64,000 nucleotides of DNA from Selenomonadaceae bacterium (lineage in GTDB: Bacteria; Bacillota; Negativicutes; Selenomonadales; Selenomonadaceae), in the NCBI GenBank assembly GCA_051653465.1, contig JBOFWE010000068.1:20007-84006 (forward strand). The letters run 5' to 3'. The notes under the pieces are model-generated. The model was given only the letters and a program-made list of their open reading frames with translations. It was not told where the DNA came from and did not search any database. A program made the translations under genes and the position numbers. This document shows, piece after piece, positions 1 to 62,934 of the stretch (within the stretch, counting starts at the first letter, position 1; each line of letters begins with the position of its first letter).

Positions 1-1442
1 TTCTCGTTTGGGGGCAAAGTTATGGACTGGATGAACTGACGGTGCGAATGGAGTTTCCCCGGTTGGGAGAAGTGCCGTTTGATTCGGAAAGAAAACTTAT
101 GAGTACGGTTCATGCCTTCGGCGATAAGGTCCTGTTAATCACCAAGGGGGCTCCGGATGTTCTTTTATCGCGACTTTCTTTTATTGCGACTTCTGCGGGT
201 GATTTACCGACAACAGAGAAAAAACTCAATGATATCCGCACGGTTATTGGCGATTTTTCAGCTAGTGGATTGCGGGTTTTAGCTGTGGGGTATAAAGAGA
301 TTTATAAGGAAACGGTCATAAATGCTGCTGCCGAAAATGGACTGACTTTTTTAGGACTTGTTTCGATGATGGATCCGCCACGGGTGGAGTCTGCAGCGGC
401 TGTGGCTGCCTGTATAAAAGCTGGCATTAAACCCGTGATGATAACGGGCGATCATAAGATAACCGCCATCGCAATTGCCAGGCAGGTGGGGATTTTTGGC
501 GAAAATGATGAGGCCCTTGCGGGCAGTGAAATTGATCTTATGCAGGATGAAGAACTTGCCCAGCATGTTGAGCATTTATCCGTATATGCAAGGGTATCGC
601 CTGAACACAAACTCAGGATTGTGAAGGCCTGGCAAAAAAAAGGTCAGTTGGTAGCCATGACAGGGGATGGCGTAAATGATGCTCCCGCGCTTAAGCAGGC
701 GGATATTGGGATTGCTATGGGGATAACCGGCACGGAGGTCGCAAAGGATTCAGCAGATATGATTCTTGCTGACGATAATTTTTCTACCATTGTTAAAGCG
801 ATTGCCAATGGACGGGCAATTTATTCAAATATCAATAAATCCATCCGATTTCTTCTTTCGGGAAATGCGGCGGGGATACTATCTGTTTTATATGCCTCCT
901 TCCTGGCGCTGCCTATCCCGTTCGCAGCAGTGCAGCTGTTGTTTATAAATCTTATCACGGATAGCTTGCCTGCTATAGCACTGGGGCTTGAACCGCATCG
1001 AGCAAATGTTATGGAGGAAAAGCCGCGCCCGGCAAATGCTTCGATTATCAACAAGCGTTTTGCCAAGGGGACTTTGGGGGAAGGCCTGCTGATCGGTACC
1101 TGTACAATGGCCGCATTTCATATCGGTTTACAAAGTGGCGACGTAAAGGCGGCAAGTACGATGGCGTTTGCTGTTTTATGTTTAGCCAGATTACTGCATT
1201 CTTTTAATTGCCGGTCCCGAGAATCGTTGTTATCTATAGGGATTTTCAAAAACATATATGTATGGATTGCTGTTATTGCCGGATATGCTTTGCTGGAAAT
1301 GGTTTTGCGGTATGGTCCACTCGCGGCAGCCTTTGAAGTCGTTCCTTTAACGCAGGCTCAATACAGGGTGCTCTACACCGCGGCTTGCATGCCACTAGTG
1401 ATTATTCAAGGGTATAGGTTCTTCTTTATAAAAAAATGTTGA
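1..1442 (+). CDS. P-type cation-transporting ATPase (Ca2+/P2-like), C-terminal part; 5' end is outside the window
   Basis: Frame is open from the window edge. Hinge motifs MTGDGVNDAPALKQADIGIAMG and VAKDSADMILADDNF, followed by several hydrophobic helices. Confidence 0.85.
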   Translation, partial: LVWGQSYGLDELTVRMEFPRLGEVPFDSERKLMSTVHAFGDKVLLITKGAPDVLLSRLSFIATSAGDLPTTEKKLNDIRTVIGDFSASGLRVLAVGYKEIYKETVINAAAENGLTFLGLVSMMDPPRVESAAAVAACIKAGIKPVMITGDHKITAIAIARQVGIFGENDEALAGSEIDLMQDEELAQHVEHLSVYARVSPEHKLRIVKAWQKKGQLVAMTGDGVNDAPALKQADIGIAMGITGTEVAKDSADMILADDNFSTIVKAIANGRAIYSNINKSIRFLLSGNAAGILSVLYASFLALPIPFAAVQLLFINLITDSLPAIALGLEPHRANVMEEKPRPANASIINKRFAKGTLGEGLLIGTCTMAAFHIGLQSGDVKAASTMAFAVLCLARLLHSFNCRSRESLLSIGIFKNIYVWIAVIAGYALLEMVLRYGPLAAAFEVVPLTQAQYRVLYTAACMPLVIIQGYRFFFIKKC

Positions 1443-34240: not shown

Positions 34241-34419
34241 CAACAAAATCACACGCTGTAACTGTAGAACTATCATCACCAGCGTATAGACATCGTGTCT
34301 ATTGAAGATGTGACAGCAGCTTTACCTGCGGATAGTTCGTTAGAGGAAGTCATTCGGACTGCCTCCGGAAAGGTTTTGATGCCATGGCGGGCATCGGCGA
34401 ATAACCTCATCTATGTTTG
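34241..34419 (-). ncRNA. Unclassified structured RNA element, copy 1 (orphan, no downstream CDS)
   Basis: Extended -10 tgtTATAAT (34429-34421) and TTGATT -35. Conserved 5' ATAGATGAGG. Helices GAGGTTATTCG/CGAATGACTTC, GAACTATC/GATAGTTC, CGCTG/CAGCG. Conserved CTACAGTTACAGCGTGTGATTTTG 3' end. Confidence 0.6.
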
Positions 34420-53554: not shown

Positions 53555-53718
53555 CAACAAAATCATACGCTATCACTGTAGAACTATCATCATTAGCGAA
53601 TTAGATAAAAAATCTAACAAAGATATGATAAAAGATAGTTCGTGGAAGAGGAAGCTGTCCGAGGGCCTCCTGAAAGGGGTTGATGTCTGGCGACATCAGG
53701 GAACAACTTCATCTATAT
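53555..53718 (-). ncRNA. Unclassified structured RNA element, copy 2 (leader of the lipoprotein gene)
   Basis: Extended -10 tgcTATATT (53731-53723) and TTGTAA -35. 5' ATAGATGAAG. Helices GAAGTTGTTC/GGACAGCTTC, GAACTATC/GATAGTTC, CGCTA/TAGCG. 3' CTACAGTGATAGCGTATGATTTTG. Confidence 0.6.
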
Positions 53719-55538: not shown

Positions 55539-55615
55539 GGGGTTATAGCTCAGTTGGTTAGAGTGCTTCGTTGACATCGAAGAGGTCACAGATTCGAGTT
55601 CTGTTAGCCCCACCA
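55539..55615 (+). tRNA. tRNA-Val (anticodon GAC) with encoded CCA
   Basis: Cloverleaf read by eye: acceptor GGGGTTA/TAGCCCC, D-arm agctcagttggttagagt, anticodon stem cttcg/cgaag with loop ttGACat, T-arm cacagattcgagttctgt. Own promoter TTGCAA-17-TAATAT at 55482-55510. Confidence 0.9.
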
Positions 55616-55648: not shown

Positions 55649-55690
55649 AGAGGTCATGATTTTAAAGAGTCATGACCTCTTTTATTTTTT
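55649..55690 (+). terminator. Terminator after tRNA-Val
   Basis: agaggtcatga...tcatgacctct followed by tttatttttt. Confidence 0.85.
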
Positions 55691-55823
55691 AACTCCATAA
55701 GGTGATCTAATACTTATAGATATTTAAAAACAGCTTTCATTTTGAGGAGTTTAAAATATCTTAGATAAGGAAATGTTAATATTTATATATGAAGTTTAAA
55801 TTAAACCAAAGGAGTGGAAATTA

Positions 55824-56471
55824 ATGTTTTTAAGAAATAAAATTTTAAGGGTGATTTTTTTAAGCAGCTGCTGCCTAATGTTGTTTTGTAGCATAGCTTA
55901 TGCTGGGGCTATAGAAGATGAGCATTATAGTGGGTCAACATATCATAATGACTATTTAGGTTTTTATATACAATTTCCGTCGGATTGGCATCTTCTAAAT
56001 GAATCACAAAATAAAGACCTTATCAAAAGAGGTATTGAATTATATAGTGGAAATGACGTTAATTTGAAAAATGCATTAACTGCATCGGAAGATAATGATA
56101 AGATTTTGGTACACTTTATAAAATATCCATTAGGTGCACCTTATAATATATCAGCAGTAGTTGAGGCTGTAAATGTGGAGAATTATCCGTATCTGCAAAA
56201 TGGCGAGAATTTTTTAGAAGCCAAAAAAATTTTTTTATTAAATACACCTATGACGATTGAATTTGAAAAGGACATTCATAATGAGGAAATAGATGGAATA
56301 AAGTGTACTGCAATGGTAACAAAACGTAAAATAGGAAAAATTGTAATTAAGCAAAAAACATATGTAATTTTTATGAAAGAATATGCTGTAGAATATATCT
56401 TTACTTATACGTTGCCAAAGCAAGAAAAAGAGGTAGATGATATTTTTAAGTCGTTGCGTTTTAATAAGTAG
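55824..56471 (+). CDS. Secreted hypothetical protein (AT-rich islet)
   Basis: Signal peptide ...LFCSIAYA. RBS aaaggag. Lys/Asn/Ile-rich composition. No family recognised. Confidence 0.55.
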   Translation: MFLRNKILRVIFLSSCCLMLFCSIAYAGAIEDEHYSGSTYHNDYLGFYIQFPSDWHLLNESQNKDLIKRGIELYSGNDVNLKNALTASEDNDKILVHFIKYPLGAPYNISAVVEAVNVENYPYLQNGENFLEAKKIFLLNTPMTIEFEKDIHNEEIDGIKCTAMVTKRKIGKIVIKQKTYVIFMKEYAVEYIFTYTLPKQEKEVDDIFKSLRFNK

Positions 56472-56521
56472 ATAGGGTTGATAAATGACATATTTATGGC
56501 AGTTTATATAGGAGTACTGTT

Positions 56522-57922
56522 TTGAATATTAAAGATTTTAAAGATAAAATTTCAAAAGGATTAGGCAGTGCTATATTATTTCTGAAAAATAATCCGGAGC
56601 AAGCACATAAATATAGTACGAGTATTCTTTGGGCTTGTTGCCATGATACAAGATATGATTCTCAATGTGAATCGGGAAGAAGCTTTTACCTTTATGAGGC
56701 GATTTGCCTGTCAAACAGAAAAGAGCAGCTTGAAGATAAATTATTGGAAAAACTTCTTCGTGCCAAGCGATATGAAGATGTTGAACAGCTTTTTGCAATA
56801 GCTGAAAGAATGCATGATAATGGGAATATTCGCGCAAGAAAAGTTATGTATGATAGATTTAAGGAATATTCAAGTAGGATACAAAAAATCAAAGTGTTTA
56901 GTTTTACTAGGAATAGAAATATATTGGAATGCGCAACAGCCGGAGCCATAAATATTATATCTATGGATAAGTTTGAAGGTTTGGAATTTGTCTTAGATAC
57001 CATGGGCAGTATAATGATATCTAAAAAGATAAAGGAATTATTCGATGCAGACTGGGTTTTAGCGTATGCCAAAAATGAATTGGGCGAAAAAAATCTGAAT
57101 GAGTTTTTAAAAGATAAATCCTCTGTAAATGAAAATATTAAAGTTCTATTTCAAGAATATAAAGCTAATCAACAAAGCCGATATGAGTATCAGCAAAATA
57201 AAAAAGCAGTAGTACCTAATTTTGAAAATATAATCTCCATGGTAGAGAGATATTGCTTTGAAGACAAGATGAGATTAGGAAGACGAAATATATTGTGCAG
57301 AATGGGTAAAAAGGCTGATGCTAAAGAACTTATCAAGGTAGCACGCGAGCTTGAAAATACAGTGGATGAATCGAAACAAATAGCTTTGCTGCATGTATTT
57401 AGGGAAGCGGAATATCCTCTCCCGATTGATTTTTTACTAAAGCTAGCATGTAATTCCAATAAGATGCTGGTAGGTACTGTGGCTGAAGCGTTAAAAAACA
57501 CTAAAGATCATAGAATACATGATCTAGCAATACGATTAATGAAAGACGGAGAACTTTGTATTTATGGACTAGGATTATTGAGGAAAAATTTCCAGCAAGA
57601 TTATGAGCTTATTTTAGAATTATTAAGAAAAGCAAAAGATCAGTGTAAGACAGAGTCGGATGAATATGAATTTCATAGTTTTACAATGGAAATAAGAGCT
57701 GTTTTTGAGTGCAACAAAAGTGTTGAAAGTGCGGATATTCTAGAATTTTTATATCAAAACACGACATGTTCATATTGCAGACAGAAAATAGTTCAAATAA
57801 TGTGTGATAATGATATTTTGTCCCGGCATGTTGCCGAAGAATGTCTGTATGATTGCGAGGATGAAACTCGAGCTATAGCCGTGGGCTATTTTAAAACGAA
57901 AGAGGCCTTTGTAAAAAAATAA
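56522..57922 (+). CDS. Hypothetical helical-repeat-like protein (AT-rich islet)
   Basis: TTG start after aggag. 466 aa, alpha-helical/repeat-like composition. No catalytic motif recognised. Confidence 0.55.
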   Translation: MNIKDFKDKISKGLGSAILFLKNNPEQAHKYSTSILWACCHDTRYDSQCESGRSFYLYEAICLSNRKEQLEDKLLEKLLRAKRYEDVEQLFAIAERMHDNGNIRARKVMYDRFKEYSSRIQKIKVFSFTRNRNILECATAGAINIISMDKFEGLEFVLDTMGSIMISKKIKELFDADWVLAYAKNELGEKNLNEFLKDKSSVNENIKVLFQEYKANQQSRYEYQQNKKAVVPNFENIISMVERYCFEDKMRLGRRNILCRMGKKADAKELIKVARELENTVDESKQIALLHVFREAEYPLPIDFLLKLACNSNKMLVGTVAEALKNTKDHRIHDLAIRLMKDGELCIYGLGLLRKNFQQDYELILELLRKAKDQCKTESDEYEFHSFTMEIRAVFECNKSVESADILEFLYQNTTCSYCRQKIVQIMCDNDILSRHVAEECLYDCEDETRAIAVGYFKTKEAFVKK

Positions 57923-58059: not shown

Positions 58060-58311
58060 TTACGATGGACCCGGCGGAACGTTGTCTTTTTCGGTCAGCT
58101 TTTCGACAGCCTGACGCAGTTGACGGATCTCATCAATCAATTCCTTATGGAAGTGAGAGCGCTCTTCCTGGCGCTGATAAAAGGGGCATTTGCCGCGATG
58201 CAGGAGAAGAAATATCAATCCGATAAAAAACAGGAGAAACATGGGCATCAAGAACATCATGAAGGGCATACCTGGACCATAACCTGGGGATCCCCACCAC
58301 ATATACATCAT
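58060..58311 (-). CDS. Small membrane protein with Met/Gly/Pro-rich N-terminus and C-terminal coiled coil
   Basis: MMYMWWGSPGYGPGMPFMMF..., one TM helix, then ELIDEIRQLRQAVEKL. RBS gggaaagg. Confidence 0.5.
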   Translation of the reverse strand: MMYMWWGSPGYGPGMPFMMFLMPMFLLFFIGLIFLLLHRGKCPFYQRQEERSHFHKELIDEIRQLRQAVEKLTEKDNVPPGPS

Positions 58312-58464: not shown

Positions 58465-60321
58465 CTATTCACCAAGTAAAATACGGTGAATATCAAGGCC
58501 GTAACGGTGAATAAAGCTCTGCTTGACTTGCTGCAGGGTTTCCCCGGCAGTTGTCCCCTGGGCCATAAGCTGGCGGCGGGCAAGTTCGCCCGCAATTACA
58601 TCGAGAAATAGCTCGGCGAGCAGTAAGCGGGCATCGTCGCGGAAATGCCCTTGGCCGTTTACGTAGAGGCGGACGGTCGGAGCTTCGGTGTTTATAAGAA
58701 TCAATCGTTCTGCCGGAGCATAAATGGCGCGGTCAATGTCATTTCCCAGGCTGCGCAGCTCATAGCCAGCAAATAAAGGGGGATTAATGCTTTCGTCATA
58801 AGTGGATTTTGCCTTTTTGTCATGGGGATGATGAAAGCCAGCCCCGCCTGAATTTTTGACGATGGCAATTTTACAGTCTGCGGAGTAATTGCCAGCCGTA
58901 GCTGTTATGTGCCCGTTGATATTCAGCATGTGCCCTTGCGCAAGCCATTTAAAAGATCCTTTCGCATCAAGGTCGGAAAATTCGATTGTCTCGGGCTGAG
59001 GCGCAAGACTTATTTCGGGTGGAAGGTCATATGTCAGCTGAATCCCGCCTTTTTCACGCTGCAGATGCAGTACATCCGCGTGCAGGGTGATGTGAAAATG
59101 GTGATGTAGCTGACGGTAATATACGGGCATACTGAAGCGAAGACATGGCGGCAGGCTGATGCCGAGGTCTTCGGCAGCGGCCTGGTTCATTTTTTTCAGG
59201 ATCGTTTCGATCATTGTTTTGGTGCGCCTTGATGTGGAGGCGTGGTCGATATGACTCAGGCGCAGGCGTTCGCGTTCAATGGCGGGGCGGATCAGCTCAC
59301 TGACAGCAGCAGCGAATTTTTGGACAAAGGGATGTTTGGTGTTTAGCCCCTCGCGCTCATCGCTGATGATAGCCTGCCCGGCTCCGAGCATATCGAGTAA
59401 GGCGGGGCAACTGACGTGCCCGAAAAGATATTCCGTTCCCAACTGGTTTTCAAATTGAAAAAACTGGCAGTCAAGGACTGCGGTTCCCGATAAGATCAAC
59501 AGTCCGCTGGAACGCTCATCGCCCTTTAAAATCAGCTTTTCCTGAACGGATTTTTTCAATGTCAGCCAAAAGGGATAAAGCTGTTCCTGGTAGCGAAAGG
59601 TTTCCATGGCGTCGGGACCGAGTAAAACCATGGAATCTGGTTCTTGATAAGCTAAAATAACAGGGGCTTTTCTTGCATCTGAAGTTTGCTTGCTGGAAAA
59701 TTCCAGGCGTCGCCGACGTTGTATATCTCGCAGGTATACGTTGTTGGTTATAGCCTCTGCCAGAGACTGACTGAAAGGGAGGCTGACTTGTGGGTTTGTA
59801 ATCACGATAGTGACGGTGGTACCATTGCCGCCAGCGGGAATCTGCAGACGCCGATAATCTTCGGCAGAAGCTGACCGTTCGCCGCTGCCATCATCGTAGA
59901 CATATCGACCGTTCTCCAAACGAAAAAGATCGATTCGGCTGAAACGGCCATTGGCAATTGATTCGATCCAGCCGTATCCGAGTCCATAAACCGCTTGCTT
60001 TAACCCGCGACCGAAATACCCGCGGCCAATTGCTTGGCCATGAGCCAGCAGACTGTGCGAACCACCGTAGGATAGAATCCGGCGCAGATTGGGCAAGGAC
60101 ATTCCCTCGGCGCAATCGCTGACTGCAAGAATGCTGTTGATTTTATGGCGTTCATAATAAATGCGGATTACAGGGTCTATCGGTGTGTGAACACTTTCCA
60201 GGCGGCTGTAGCTGTCATCGTCATTGGTAATCAGCTCGACCAATGCTTTTTCGATGGAAGCAAAACGGCGGGAATCGATGTCTATAACCCGTTGGTCAAC
60301 CGGTAAATTTGCAACAGCCAT
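58465..60321 (-). CDS. GHKL-superfamily (HATPase_c_3-like) ATPase with a large uncharacterised C-terminal region
   Basis: N-box ALVELITNDDDSY, G1-box VSDCAEGMS, G2-box GRGYFGRGLKQAV. ATG 60321 lies 6 nt after AGGGGGA (ORF opens at 60399). Confidence 0.65.
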   Translation of the reverse strand: MAVANLPVDQRVIDIDSRRFASIEKALVELITNDDDSYSRLESVHTPIDPVIRIYYERHKINSILAVSDCAEGMSLPNLRRILSYGGSHSLLAHGQAIGRGYFGRGLKQAVYGLGYGWIESIANGRFSRIDLFRLENGRYVYDDGSGERSASAEDYRRLQIPAGGNGTTVTIVITNPQVSLPFSQSLAEAITNNVYLRDIQRRRRLEFSSKQTSDARKAPVILAYQEPDSMVLLGPDAMETFRYQEQLYPFWLTLKKSVQEKLILKGDERSSGLLILSGTAVLDCQFFQFENQLGTEYLFGHVSCPALLDMLGAGQAIISDEREGLNTKHPFVQKFAAAVSELIRPAIERERLRLSHIDHASTSRRTKTMIETILKKMNQAAAEDLGISLPPCLRFSMPVYYRQLHHHFHITLHADVLHLQREKGGIQLTYDLPPEISLAPQPETIEFSDLDAKGSFKWLAQGHMLNINGHITATAGNYSADCKIAIVKNSGGAGFHHPHDKKAKSTYDESINPPLFAGYELRSLGNDIDRAIYAPAERLILINTEAPTVRLYVNGQGHFRDDARLLLAELFLDVIAGELARRQLMAQGTTAGETLQQVKQSFIHRYGLDIHRILLGE

Positions 60322-60420
60322 GATCATTCCCCCTGCGATAAAATCTATCGGTAAAAATTTTAAAGAGGCTGGCACAGTATTAAATGGTGCCAGGGGCAAA
60401 AATTCTGTAACTTAATAAAT

Positions 60421-60450
60421 AAGCTGCAAAAGAATATTCTTTTGCAGCTT
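60421..60450 (-). terminator. Perfect 15+15 palindromic hairpin between RNA copy 3 and the GHKL gene (attenuator-like)
   Basis: aagctgcaaaagaat|attcttttgcagctt, followed on the minus strand by ATTTATT. Confidence 0.45.
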
Positions 60451-60488
60451 ATCCAGTATTACCCTTATGGTTTTTGTAGATGAGAATC

Positions 60489-60651
60489 GGAAAAACCATG
60501 CGCTATAACTGTGAGACTGTCGTCGCTAGCGCTTTACCCATATCAGAGCAAAAAGGATGTGACCGCTGACAGCCCTGGCAGAAGAAACTGTTCAAACTGC
60601 CTCAGGTAAGAGTTAGAGGACTTTACTGCTGGTGAACAGCTTCATCTATAA
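60489..60651 (-). ncRNA. Unclassified structured RNA element, copy 3 (leader of the GHKL ATPase gene)
   Basis: Extended -10 tgaTATAAT (60664-60656) and TTGATG -35. 5' ATAGATGAAG. Helices GAAGCTGTTCA/TGAACAGTTTC, GGCTGTC/GACAGTC, GCGCTA/TAGCGC. 3' CACAGTTATAGCGCATGGTTTTT. Confidence 0.6.
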
Positions 60652-60731
60652 GGAAATTATATCATAGGGGCAGTTTTTCATCAATGAAATTCTAAATTTT
60701 CTGTTAATTTTAGGGAGATGGTCACAAAATA

Positions 60732-61076
60732 TCAGCTGCTGCCGCGACGGCCAAAAGCACCGGGGGGATGACCGGTTTTCTCGGGACGGTCATGCTGCGG
60801 ACGTTTTTGTGTGGAAGTATCCTTGGCTGGCAGCGAAAACTTTTCTTCATCGCCGGCGACATAACCGGTTTCATCGAGGGGAACAGTGAAGGAGGAGTGT
60901 TCGTTTTTGGAAAATTTTCGTTCAGACAGAAAAATTGGGCATGATAGCCAGGCTGTTTTTGCACTGCGATCGACTTTTGTCAGTTGAAGATTAAGACCGC
61001 AAAAGCCACAGGTGCGATCTGTAAGATCGCCTATGGTTGATGTTAGCAGGGGCTTCGCCTTCTTGGTTGTCTTCAT
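60732..61076 (-). CDS. Hypothetical protein with a short Cys motif and a disordered basic tail
   Basis: Strong RBS AGGAGGGA. CGFCG...C. No family recognised. Confidence 0.5.
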   Translation of the reverse strand: MKTTKKAKPLLTSTIGDLTDRTCGFCGLNLQLTKVDRSAKTAWLSCPIFLSERKFSKNEHSSFTVPLDETGYVAGDEEKFSLPAKDTSTQKRPQHDRPEKTGHPPGAFGRRGSS

Positions 61077-62623: not shown

Positions 62624-62656
62624 TGTAAATTTACAGTAATAATACTATAAACATAA

Positions 62657-62736
62657 TTCCTACGGTGGCATTATCCACATCAGGTATATGGGTCAAAGTT
62701 CGGTTACTTTTTCTCAGCCTGCTATACAAGCTCCCC
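62657..62736 (-). promoter_or_regulatory. TPP (THI-box) riboswitch
   Basis: Minus sense: ggggagc...gctgagaaa...acccatatacctgatgtggataatgccaccgtaggaa. A TGgTACAAT promoter lies upstream. Confidence 0.9.
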
Positions 62737-62934
62737 GCAATATGAAACTTTCCATATTGTACCACAGCTGTTAGGAAACTGCAAATACCTATGTGGCCGG
62801 CAGACTGCGCGTAAAAGCAGGAGTTTGGGCGCAGAATAGGGAAGTTATAGCTTGTGAAAGTAAATCAGATTATGCGACCTGGCAAATGCGTGAAGCAGTT
62901 TTTCGGCCAGGAAGGTGAAGTGAAGGTGAACATA

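Follow-up and report, generated by a model that had tools for sequence, protein, structure and literature searches.

What does a GHKL-type ATPase do when it carries no recognizable effector domain and has no conserved partner gene? A gene on the minus strand of a 64,000-nucleotide stretch of Selenomonadaceae DNA (the window) raises this question. Only a few kinds of ATP-driven clamp make up the GHL ATPases (gyrase B/topo VI-B, Hsp90, MutL, and MORC), and every one has proved mechanistically important. Links between bacterial relatives, for example Tiamat and GHKL-Shedu, and immunity were made only recently. The first-pass annotation described the gene as an orphan with a C-terminal region of about 450 aa that matched nothing and suggested, as an inference, a role in defense or stress. 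With a probability of about 0.5, we conclude that it encodes a predicted catalytically competent GHL-type (GHKL plus transducer) clamp ATPase of an uncharacterized family and that it is accessory and horizontally acquired.

Gene limits and ATPase motifs

According to the ORF list of the window, the longest minus-strand reading frame spans 58465-60399 and opens with TTG. The gene had been placed at 58465-60321, and these limits are right because the ATG at 60321 is preceded by a GGGGG Shine-Dalgarno-like run and the product that begins there (MAVANLPVDQRV...) agrees with the N-termini of all homologues in the alignment. The ORF is real and intact and has all Bergerat motifs (Table 1). The N-box, G1, and G2 motifs noted earlier are present in the translation at residues 29-38 (ELITNDDDSY), 69-75 (DCAEGMS), and 99-111 (GRGYFGRGLKQAV). 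Among 25 family members, E29, N33, D36, D69, G73, G99, G101, G104, G106, and K108 are invariant. All four GHKL motifs, namely I (ExxxNxxD), II (DxxxG), III (GxxGxG), and IV (a T-containing strand), were found, with E29/N33/D36, D69/G73, G99-G106, and T168 invariant or nearly so.

HATPase_c_3 was the sole Pfam match of the 618-aa protein (22.5 bits, E = 1.3e-4, residues 22-117). This score lies below the gathering score of 25 bits, which many homologues exceed, and relatives match with E values of up to 1.9e-11. Searches of Pfam (E ≤ 1), NCBIfam, and PADLOC returned no family beyond HATPase_c_3. The original placement in the HATPase_c_3/MORC-Hsp90-like branch is borne out by the Pfam match, by a profile alignment to MORC3/MORC4 that spans motifs II-III, and by Foldseek. 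The protein also lacks, as had been said, any histidine-kinase, MutL C-terminal, or Toprim part.

Table 1. Features of the ATPase locus, in window coordinates.
Feature	Position	Strand	Evidence
Complete GHKL/GHL-type ATPase gene, 618 aa + stop (stop codon 58465-58467)	58465..60321	-	ORF list, translation, full-length homologues, dN/dS
N-terminal arm, residues 1-21 (LPVDQRVIDIDSRRFAS)	60259..60321	-	nearly invariant; low confidence in monomer model
Bergerat-fold ATP-binding domain, residues ~22-210 (motif I E29/N33/D36; II D69-G73; III G99-K108; IV around T168)	59692..60258	-	HATPase_c_3, invariant columns, Foldseek, profile alignment
Transducer (S5-fold-like) domain, residues ~211-385	59167..59691	-	AlphaFold2 model, Foldseek
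Hinge + Ig-like beta-sandwich, residues 386-490 (sandwich 394-490)	58852..59166	-	alignment, C-terminal model
Disordered linker (491-518) + C-terminal domain (519-618)	58468..58851	-	secondary structure, conserved columns
83-aa small membrane protein, downstream	58060..58311	-	translation
18-bp hairpin, then UUUAUU	60414..60453	-	RNA fold, -26.3 kcal/mol
Structured RNA, conserved core, copy 3 of 3 in window	60492..60649	-	alignments, base pairing, covariance model
RNA promoter TTGATG-17-TATAAT, extended -10 TG	60656..60684	-	promoter scan, 10/12 matches
Other structured RNA copies in window	53559-53716 and 34245-34414	-	alignments

Domain architecture

We modeled the ATPase as a monomer using AlphaFold2 (pLDDT 75, pTM 0.51) and compared the model with known structures using Foldseek. 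The C-terminal region that had matched nothing proved to hold a transducer, an Ig-like domain, and a conserved C-terminal domain. With a probability of 1.0 and across ~400 columns, the model matched the N+M domains of Hsp90/GRP94/TRAP1, the ATPase modules of MORC3/4 and SMCHD1, and topo VI-B. The GHL hallmark, an S5-like transducer straight after the GHKL domain, is present by Foldseek in this model of pLDDT 75. Because its C-terminal part consists, in the AlphaFold2 model, of the transducer, an Ig-like sandwich, and a small beta/two-helix domain, we describe the protein as a GHL-type clamp ATPase without a recognizable effector domain.

In the N-terminal arm, P7, Q10-S17, R19, and F20 are invariant columns of the family alignment, and residues 1-18 have pLDDT < 50 in the monomer model. 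By analogy with GyrB, MutL, and Hsp90, the arm may be a strand-swap strap for ATP-dependent dimerization. The transducer terminates in two long helices (331-356 and 365-385) and includes an invariant loop, ISDEREGLNxK (319-329), which is a candidate gamma-phosphate sensor. Nearly all other family members have a 16-residue Gly/Pro-rich hinge (PGPGSGKYGPxxTGRPAV) that is missing in the 618-aa copy. The Ig-like domain was modeled at pLDDT 85-97 in a C-terminal model, for which Foldseek gave generic Ig/FN3 matches only (E ~1e-4).

The C-terminal domain is modeled as three short strands and a two-helix hairpin. It contains a highly conserved block (RLILINTEAPTVRLYVxGQGHFxDxARLLLAELxLDVI), with invariant columns at 517-581, and residues 519-618 gave no match in structure or sequence searches. 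Going by the models, this domain is probably a constitutive dimer interface. The conserved arm and the C-terminal helical hairpin suggest constitutive C-terminal dimerization combined with ATP-driven N-terminal dimerization. The net charge is acidic: the family median pI is 5.7, and a crude per-domain count gives about -6 for the transducer and acidic values for all domains.

Family, distribution, and selection

The label "orphan" was wrong, as hundreds of full-length homologues exist in a large and highly conserved family. We found >480 of them (~633 aa, 47-59% identity to the 618-aa ATPase) in Bacillota, Actinomycetota, Pseudomonadota, Campylobacterota, and Desulfobacterota, and the wider superfamily comprises ~980 clusters. 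The family is large and strongly conserved but unstudied; as a lone gene, it is scattered patchily over the bacterial phyla. It is accessory, not core: ~175 of 185,579 species carry it, as do 2 of 58 related genera and 5 of the 151 genomes of the class Negativicutes.

Comparison with the sister species gives a dN/dS of 0.14, which indicates purifying selection on the gene, and the 618-aa copy keeps 189 of the 205 strongly conserved columns. It was probably acquired horizontally; in the tree, it lies among Propionibacteriaceae sequences, apart from other Negativicutes. Inheritance inside genera looks vertical in the same tree. In databases, family members are annotated only as "ATP-binding protein."

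In a sister clade of the ATPase, an uncharacterized gene encoding ~220 aa always precedes the ATPase gene (8/8 loci), forming a two-gene module. The N-terminal half of this partner is possibly winged-helix-like, judging from its sequence. An HMM search for the partner in all loci of the tight family and in the whole genome did not find it, and its fusion into the ATPase was rejected by profile-profile comparison. The sister module sometimes adjoins toxin-antitoxin or nuclease genes: its neighbors are HNH/McrA-like, NucS-like, and SIR2 genes in Priestia and Fic + PDDEXK or PIN-MazE + SNF2 elsewhere.

Genomic context

The AT-rich islet, the tRNA-Val (55539-55615), and the small ORF downstream that had been read as a possible defense setting are all present in the window. 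The gene itself, however, sits outside the variable islet, within a block whose synteny is shared by the sister species, and we rejected tRNA adjacency as an integration signal, with a tRNA within 10 kb at only 7 of 60 family loci. The 83-aa membrane protein is genus-specific and not part of the ATPase family context; of all the loci, only those in this genus's two genomes have it. The gene was correctly described as a single one downstream of a repeated structured RNA.

All-against-all ORF clustering of 83 loci revealed no conserved partner gene. The most frequent neighbor cluster occurred at no more than 8 of the 83 loci, and the recurring clusters were housekeeping genes of syntenic relatives. 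The 70 immediate neighbors matched 105 Pfam families, none of which was found in more than 2 of the 70; these are ordinary metabolic, transport, and signaling genes, and no defense or mobile families stood out among them. We detected no copies on 72,556 plasmids, in 50,697 phages, or on IMG/VR contigs. PADLOC gave no family match for the 618-aa ATPase and 10 distant relatives, one of which touched TmtA over the GHKL motif only (E = 0.09). Upstream of 66 homologues, no LexA boxes, CIRCE, or similar motifs were held in common.

The proposed defense role, although it may still hold, is therefore unsupported: the gene is accessory and has no conserved neighbor and no match in PADLOC, plasmids, phages, or viral contigs. 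The first-pass annotation had held that consistent core-genome contexts, away from mobile or defense islands, would speak against defense. The homologues indeed occupy ordinary chromosomal positions with no island association, but their contexts are variable and the gene is accessory.

Proposed mechanism and competing roles

If it works as Hsp90, MutL, MORC, and topo VI-B do, the ATPase would act as a homodimer held by its C-terminal domain. ATP binding would cause the N-terminal domains to dimerize through the arm, closing the clamp round a macromolecular substrate that would be gripped by the transducer and Ig domains, and ATP hydrolysis would reopen it. E29 would be the general base, and a basic residue of the ISDEREGLNxK loop would sense the phosphate. 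Because the protein lacks a nuclease or any other effector domain and its gene has no linked partner, the output would be the clamp action itself, remodeling or sequestering the target.

For the role of this clamp, we rank a conflict or defense-type function first, at somewhat less than even odds. The patchy distribution and the fixed two-gene module of the sister clade point toward conflict, as does the occasional position of that module beside toxin-antitoxin or nuclease genes. Against defense stand the lack of an effector domain, the vertical-looking inheritance within genera, and the mean column identity of 67% in the family alignment, which appears unusually high for an arms-race gene.

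A doubtful, though plausible, alternative is an Hsp90-like accessory chaperone or remodeler that clamps protein clients in stress, as a niche-specific addition to HtpG. The PDB matches from Foldseek are mostly Hsp90, GRP94, or TRAP1 N+M domains, and the ATPase is acidic like Hsp90. The very high conservation and vertical-looking inheritance that tell against defense would suit a chaperone, and the N-box (ELITNSDDS) presumably resembles the Hsp90 type. Usp, Hsp33, PspA, or Band_7 genes lie near some loci, but Band_7, PspA, and Usp were rejected as recurrent stress neighbors: Band_7 neighbors the gene in no genus but this one and Raineyella, and PspA does so in a single species. The Pfam HSP90 model did not match the ATPase, the Hsp90 C-terminal dimerization domain is missing, the G2 box (GxxGxGxK) is MORC-like, the nearest solved relatives by sequence are MORC3/4, and the gene is very rare for such a role. 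A canonical HtpG (426 bits) is encoded on another contig of the genome, which counts against replacement of Hsp90.

We consider it unlikely that the protein clamps DNA in the manner of topo VI-B or MORC to serve compaction, topology, repair, or restriction, alone or with an unlinked nuclease or partner. The best full-length PDB match is M. mazei topo VI-B, MORC3/4 are the top PDB matches at the sequence level, and the ~220-aa partner in the sister clade may have a winged-helix-like half. However, a Top6A/Spo11 gene (PF04406) is absent from the genome (96.9% complete), no nuclease, helicase, or methylase is linked at the 83 loci, and the MORC S5 motif is missing (GLLILSGTAVL, without Arg). The acidic net charge of every domain and of the family counts against a DNA substrate.

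Upstream structured RNA

The "leader" that precedes the ATPase gene proved to be a genuine structured RNA and has a promoter and a probable terminator of its own. The RNA has 24 base pairs with compensatory changes, and Rfam, at gathering and E-value thresholds, gave nothing credible for it. A plain DNA search of the genome returned only the query RNA; a covariance model was needed to detect copies. In a promoter scan of the region ahead of the ATPase gene, the RNA promoter was the sole strong candidate. A hairpin ~90 nt ahead of the ATPase start codon is probably the intrinsic terminator of the RNA, and copies 1 and 2 end in equivalent hairpins. The RNA forms a longer unit (~300 nt) in other genera. 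It appears to be a non-coding RNA of Negativicutes in its own right, and in this genus the ATPase is probably transcribed by read-through from the upstream RNA gene.

That the ATPase and the RNA act as a ribonucleoprotein, or that the RNA regulates the ATPase as a riboswitch-type leader, is very improbable: in both species of this genus the two lie side by side with one promoter between them, but the RNA is within 10 kb of the gene at none of ~85 other loci, including genomes that have both. Their co-occurrence in the class is above expectation (both in 3, the RNA in 6, and the gene in 5 of 151 genomes; Fisher p = 3e-4 by genome, and 0.025 by genus, a weak statistic confounded by kinship), and a Sporomusaceae carrier of the gene also has two RNA copies. 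Nevertheless, the RNA is absent from four other Negativicutes and five Clostridia carriers of the gene and occurs without it in three genomes. Neither of the other two RNA copies in the window precedes an ATPase gene (one is followed by a lipoprotein gene, the other by none), and in other genera the RNA has its own terminator with no gene directly after it.

Significance

The family is unusual in combining ~980 clusters, 47-59% identity across phyla, a transducer, an Ig-like domain, and a new C-terminal domain with no effector. Its substrate, once found, would give the superfamily a new functional branch; an accessory chaperone would likewise be new for bacteria. A natural experimental handle lies in the difference between the stand-alone clade and its sister clade, in which a partner is obligatory, and cultured carriers include Marinobacter, Stutzerimonas, Arthrobacter, Acetobacterium, and Priestia. 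Speculatively, and rather improbably as a whole, the family and its sister clade may be an unrecognized class of bacterial GHL clamp ATPases with the clamp, not a nuclease, as output, using ATP to capture or remodel a conserved cellular or invading macromolecule. They would then form a new conflict or stress system made up of one gene (two in the sister clade), with a giant-virus structural counterpart and perhaps, in Negativicutes, functional coupling to a new structured RNA.

Comparison with known GHKL and GHL systems

Membership in Tiamat, Shedu/paraMORC3, MORC sensu stricto, Hsp90, and topo VI was rejected in each case, as a defining feature is missing. MutL was rejected because neither DNA_mis_repair nor MutL_C matched in Pfam at E ≤ 1, and CapK/CapS because CapK is an HTH-STAS-GHKL anti-sigma-type kinase of another architecture (PMC13373217).

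Prokaryotic MORC and paraMORC systems are defined by conserved linkage to an SF-II helicase, methylase, or endonuclease, or by fusion to a nuclease or TIR domain (Iyer, Abhiman & Aravind 2008; PMC2292703). The ATPase resembles them in its N-terminal GHKL domain with four motifs followed by an S5-like transducer, in its sporadic distribution with lateral transfer, and, for MORC, in its GxxGxGxK-type G2 box and sequence-level PDB matches. In contrast, its gene has no such linked helicase, methylase, or endonuclease, and the S5 motif GhXhhpXXRhl is replaced by G273-LLILSGTAVL, which lacks the Arg of the motif in a register set by eye. Where paraMORC3-5 carry a fused RE-fold, TIR, or other effector, the ATPase has the Ig-like and distinct C-terminal domains.

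VcSduA (GHKL-Shedu/paraMORC3) ends in a DUF4263 PD-(D/E)xK nuclease (PMC12137116). Like GHKL-Shedu, the ATPase is encoded by a single gene and joins an N-terminal GHKL ATPase to a clamp-like middle domain; unlike GHKL-Shedu/Shedu type I-D, it has no DUF4263 nuclease by Pfam, PADLOC, or fold search. In Tiamat (TmtA), TPR-like repeats, "Fold B," and a metalloprotease-like fold (DUF3684) replace S5, and the protein ends in a PD-(D/E)xK nuclease (DUF3883) (bioRxiv 10.64898/2026.09.30.754977). Both are stand-alone, single-gene GHL-type ATPases without a conserved partner and are rare and patchy in prokaryotes, but the 618-aa ATPase has a transducer and no nuclease and did not match Pfam DUF3684/DUF3883 or PADLOC TmtA (E ≤ 1).

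Hsp90, HtpG, GRP94, and TRAP1 share the GHKL and middle-domain fold over ~410 columns (E = 1e-9 to 1e-10), as well as acidity and, putatively, a dimeric clamp architecture. They differ in the Pfam HSP90 match, which the ATPase lacks, in the C-terminal part, and in that the ATPase gene is accessory.

Top6B carries a C-terminal Ig-like domain. M. mazei topo VI-B (PDB 9o0g_B) was the best PDB match and the only full-length one (E = 2.2e-12, 657 columns), with the same order of strap, GHKL domain, small helical insert, transducer with long helices, and Ig-like domain. Identity is 11%, however, and the TM-score only 0.34; the ATPase has no Topo VI-B Pfam match, is acidic, and has an extra conserved C-terminal domain.

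Searches of phage and viral collections found no sequence-level relatives. Many phage rIIA proteins (BFVD) match the GHKL and transducer part (~1e-9), but they are longer and membrane-associated. The best structural match anywhere was the uncharacterized 702-aa Hokovirus HKV1 protein A0A1V0SGC9 (E = 3.9e-24, TM 0.44, 726 columns); as with rIIA, its identity to the ATPase is ≤15%.

The window gene encodes a GHL-type ATPase

The ORF listing contains a single long ORF on the minus strand, which opens at a TTG codon. Within it, a GGGGG run precedes an in-frame ATG, and the N-terminus translated from that ATG (MAVANLPVDQRV...) corresponds to that of every homologue in the alignment. The 618-aa gene proposed in the first-pass annotation is therefore correct, and the three Bergerat motifs quoted there lie in the translation at residues 29-38, 69-75, and 99-111. 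HATPase_c_3 was the sole Pfam match (22.5 bits, E = 1.3e-4, residues 22-117), slightly below the gathering score; NCBIfam and PADLOC returned no match for the protein.

We built an AlphaFold2 model from the family alignment (mean pLDDT 75, pTM 0.51). Foldseek matches in the PDB at probability 1.0 were M. mazei topo VI-B, full length (E = 2.2e-12, 657 columns), the N and M domains of Hsp90, GRP94, TRAP1, and HtpG (~410 columns, E = 1e-9 to 1e-10), and the MORC3/MORC4 ATPase modules and SMCHD1. These matches identify residues ~211-385 of the model as a predicted transducer (S5-like) domain, the defining feature of the GHL subgroup. The structural class named at first reading was right: with its HATPase_c_3 match and its GHKL and transducer matches, the ATPase belongs to the GHKL superfamily and, within it, to the GHL subgroup. 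By sequence, the nearest solved structures were MORC3/4 (E ~0.1, motifs II-III only).

The C-terminal 450 residues had been described as unrecognizable. This holds for the last domain, which had no match in a fold search with a second model of residues 378-618, and not for the transducer or for the Ig-like sandwich, which was modeled at pLDDT 85-97 and matched only generic Ig/FN3 domains (E ~1e-4). A 16-residue Gly/Pro-rich hinge at the transducer-Ig junction, present in nearly all other members, is missing from the window copy.

The full-length model had its strongest structural match, by a wide margin, in an uncharacterized 702-aa protein of Hokovirus HKV1 (A0A1V0SGC9; E = 3.9e-24, 726 columns, TM 0.44), the top viral predicted structure in BFVD. 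Many phage rIIA proteins came next in the viral search (~1e-9), covering the GHKL plus transducer part.

Features of the ATPase, its surroundings, and the sister-clade partner genes (nucleotide positions in the window unless a locus is named)
Feature	Position	Strand	Source or remark
Long ORF, TTG start	58465-60399	minus	ORF listing
ATPase gene, ATG at 60321	58465-60321	minus	618 aa
Structured RNA, three copies	60492-60649, 53559-53716, 34245-34414	minus	alignment
Terminal hairpin, RNA copy 3	60414-60453		-26 kcal/mol, then UUUAUU
114-aa ORF, candidate gene	60732-61076	minus	between thiM and RNA promoter
TPP riboswitch	62640-62747	minus	68 bits; upstream of thiW-thiM
AT-rich islet	55687-57898		two genes, next to tRNA-Val
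Sister-species segment at islet site	L004:12423-15810		3.4 kb
Disordered N-terminal arm	residues 1-18		AlphaFold2 model
Bergerat domain	after N-terminal arm		AlphaFold2 model
Mixed alpha/beta domain	two long helices at end, residues 331-356 and 365-385		AlphaFold2 model
Beta-sandwich	residues 394-487		AlphaFold2 model
Disordered loop	residues 491-508		AlphaFold2 model
Three short strands, then two-helix hairpin	hairpin, residues 562-615		AlphaFold2 model
Partner genes, sister-clade loci	L096:5342-5998; L097:5306-5983; L098:5322-5993; L100:5301-5990; L102:5318-6001; L103:5356-5994; L122:5001-5669; L123:5001-5672		own contigs

The ATPase belongs to a sparsely distributed, conserved family

The gene had been called an orphan, a description that did not survive a search of 5.8 billion proteins, which gave >480 matches. 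The best 120 were ~633 aa long with 100% query coverage and 51-59% identity, annotated as "ATP-binding protein" at most. With each species represented by one genome, 175 of 185,579 species proved to be carriers, including Negativicutes, Clostridia, Syntrophomonadaceae, Propionibacteriaceae, Raineyella, Arthrobacter, Marinobacter, Pseudomonas, Stutzerimonas, Nitrosomonas, Sulfurovum, and Desulfobulbaceae. Mean column identity among 25 aligned members was 67%, with invariant residues spread over the full length.

We also searched 1.84 billion cluster representatives with a profile, which yielded 980 clusters at E <= 1e-3 (199 at E <= 1e-30). The tight family accounts for one to three 50% clusters among them, and the others consist of proteins of 620-790 aa, many matching across nearly the full length. 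In ten distant relatives, HATPase_c_3 was again the sole family, and PADLOC matched none.

Closer to home, 2 of 58 related genera carry the gene, as do 5 of 151 genomes drawn from the class as a whole. The window copy and its sister-species orthologue (93% nucleotide identity, dN/dS 0.14) share a long stem branch in the family tree (0.88 changes per site; median end branch, 0.11), and their neighbors are Propionibacteriaceae and Raineyella sequences, not other Negativicutes. Of 205 columns conserved at >= 92% in other members, the window copy retains 189. Tree placement, stem branch, retained columns, and dN/dS together indicate lateral acquisition of the gene, followed by divergence and, at present, purifying selection.

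In some loci labeled as different phyla, the genes flanking the ATPase gene follow an almost identical order: L007 and L020 (Acholeplasmataceae) match L006, L008, and L009 (Acidaminococcales) across Usp, permease, and hydrogenase genes, and L022 (Solirubrobacterales) matches L026, L032, and L038 (Clostridia) across DinB, Nramp, and GGDEF genes. This suggests mis-binned MAG contigs, not inter-phylum transfer of large blocks.

A sister clade carries a candidate partner gene

We looked up sister-clade relatives (27-40% identical, same full-length architecture) on their own contigs. In all eight loci, a 213-230-aa gene lies directly upstream and abuts or overlaps the ATPase start. The recorded hosts are Acidobacteria, Chloroflexi, Priestia, and Nitrospiraceae; the remaining four loci lie on metagenome contigs. 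The partner proteins are mutually homologous (29-39% identity), form a family of ~109 clusters, and have no relative in Pfam, PADLOC, or the PDB; the gene often follows a small ORF of 70-80 aa. Partner and ATPase form a candidate two-gene module. Conflict-type genes lie beside some modules: HNH/McrA-like, NucS-like, and SIR2 (in Priestia), Fic with a PDDEXK nuclease, PIN-MazE with an SNF2 helicase, and ParE.

The partner was not found in any tight-family locus or in the window's whole genome, and comparison showed no fusion into the ATPase. A 720-790-aa subgroup also lacks it (one locus examined).

The window gene lies in a conserved block beside a variable site

Clustering of the ORFs called in 83 loci gave no neighbor family that recurred in more than eight. 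Those that did recur are housekeeping genes of syntenic relatives (Usp with an amino-acid permease, [FeFe]-hydrogenase, a LytTR two-component pair, and DinB, Nramp, and a GGDEF-HD-GYP protein). The 70 immediate neighbors (~40 independent loci) contained 105 Pfam families, each in two neighbors at most, and no integrase, transposase, or defense family was prominent among them. A tRNA lay within 10 kb in just 7 of 60 loci, and 72,556 plasmids, 50,697 phage genomes, and IMG/VR held no match to the ATPase. The suggested defense-island setting was thus not borne out.

Within the window, the sister species keeps the same gene order at 93% identity to either side of the AT-rich islet, which is the sole exception and is replaced there by different sequence. 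The islet site is a variable insertion hotspot at the tRNA-Val gene. The ATPase gene adjoins this spot but lies in a conserved block with thiM and thiW. The thiW-thiM pair forms an ordinary thiamine-salvage operon, which lies immediately upstream of the studied region. The downstream 83-aa membrane protein and the upstream 114-aa ORF are specific to this genus; the latter has a CxxC motif, a basic tail, and no Pfam match.

The upstream RNA looks like an independent non-coding RNA

The three RNA copies align well, with 24 base pairs showing compensatory changes across copies and sister-species orthologues, and have no Rfam match. Every copy has its own promoter and ends in a hairpin. Apart from the copy 3 promoter (TTGATG-17-TATAAT, extended -10), no strong promoter lies upstream of the ATPase gene; the hairpin of copy 3 lies ~90 nt before the ATG. 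Among 151 genomes of the class, a covariance model detected the RNA in six. Outside this genus, the RNA forms a ~300-nt unit that has a terminator of its own and is not directly followed by a gene. Of the "repeated RNA leader" first described, the repeated structured RNA stands and the leader role is the less likely reading, as this arrangement makes the RNA look like an independent non-coding RNA. For the same reason, expression of the ATPase gene probably relies on read-through of the terminator, in this genus alone.

Candidate roles

The protein has an intact GHKL domain, a predicted transducer, an Ig-like domain, a conserved C-terminal domain, and a signature of purifying selection. From established knowledge of GHL ATPases (Tiamat preprint bioRxiv 10.64898/2026.09.30.754977; PMC2292703), the C-terminal domain would hold together a homodimer, ATP would drive closure through the invariant N-terminal arm, gamma-phosphate sensing may fall to a basic residue in the invariant ISDEREGLNxK loop, and the substrate would be held within the lumen.

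A conflict or defense role is our tentative reading, at a probability of roughly 0.4. Searches of Pfam, PADLOC, NCBIfam, folds, and the 83 loci found no effector domain or linked partner for the window ATPase. An Hsp90-like stress function is unlikely, though the nearest rival; a canonical HtpG is present in the genome. A DNA-related function with an unlinked partner is more doubtful still: Top6A was not found in the genome, and the acidity of the family (median pI 5.7, transducer net charge ~-6) leans away from naked DNA as substrate. A function linked to the RNA is very improbable: the ATPase gene occurs in three of the six RNA-positive genomes, more than expected (Fisher p = 3e-4 by genome, 0.025 by genus), and one Sporomusaceae carrier has two RNA copies, but both are unlinked, the RNA is never <=10 kb from the gene outside this genus, four other Negativicutes carriers and five Clostridia carriers do not have it, and three RNA-positive genomes lack the gene. 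The association is weak.

Comparison with known systems

Membership in Hsp90, MutL, and topo VI was rejected because the defining feature of each failed, and CapK/CapS because their architecture differs. Unlike MORC proteins, the window ATPase fails the MORC S5 motif; unlike paraMORC restriction systems, it has no operon partners or fused nucleases. It also differs from Tiamat, with its DUF3684 and DUF3883, and from GHKL-Shedu, with its DUF4263, in having none of these domains. Set against these systems, it is an uncharacterized, well-conserved stand-alone GHL clamp ATPase.
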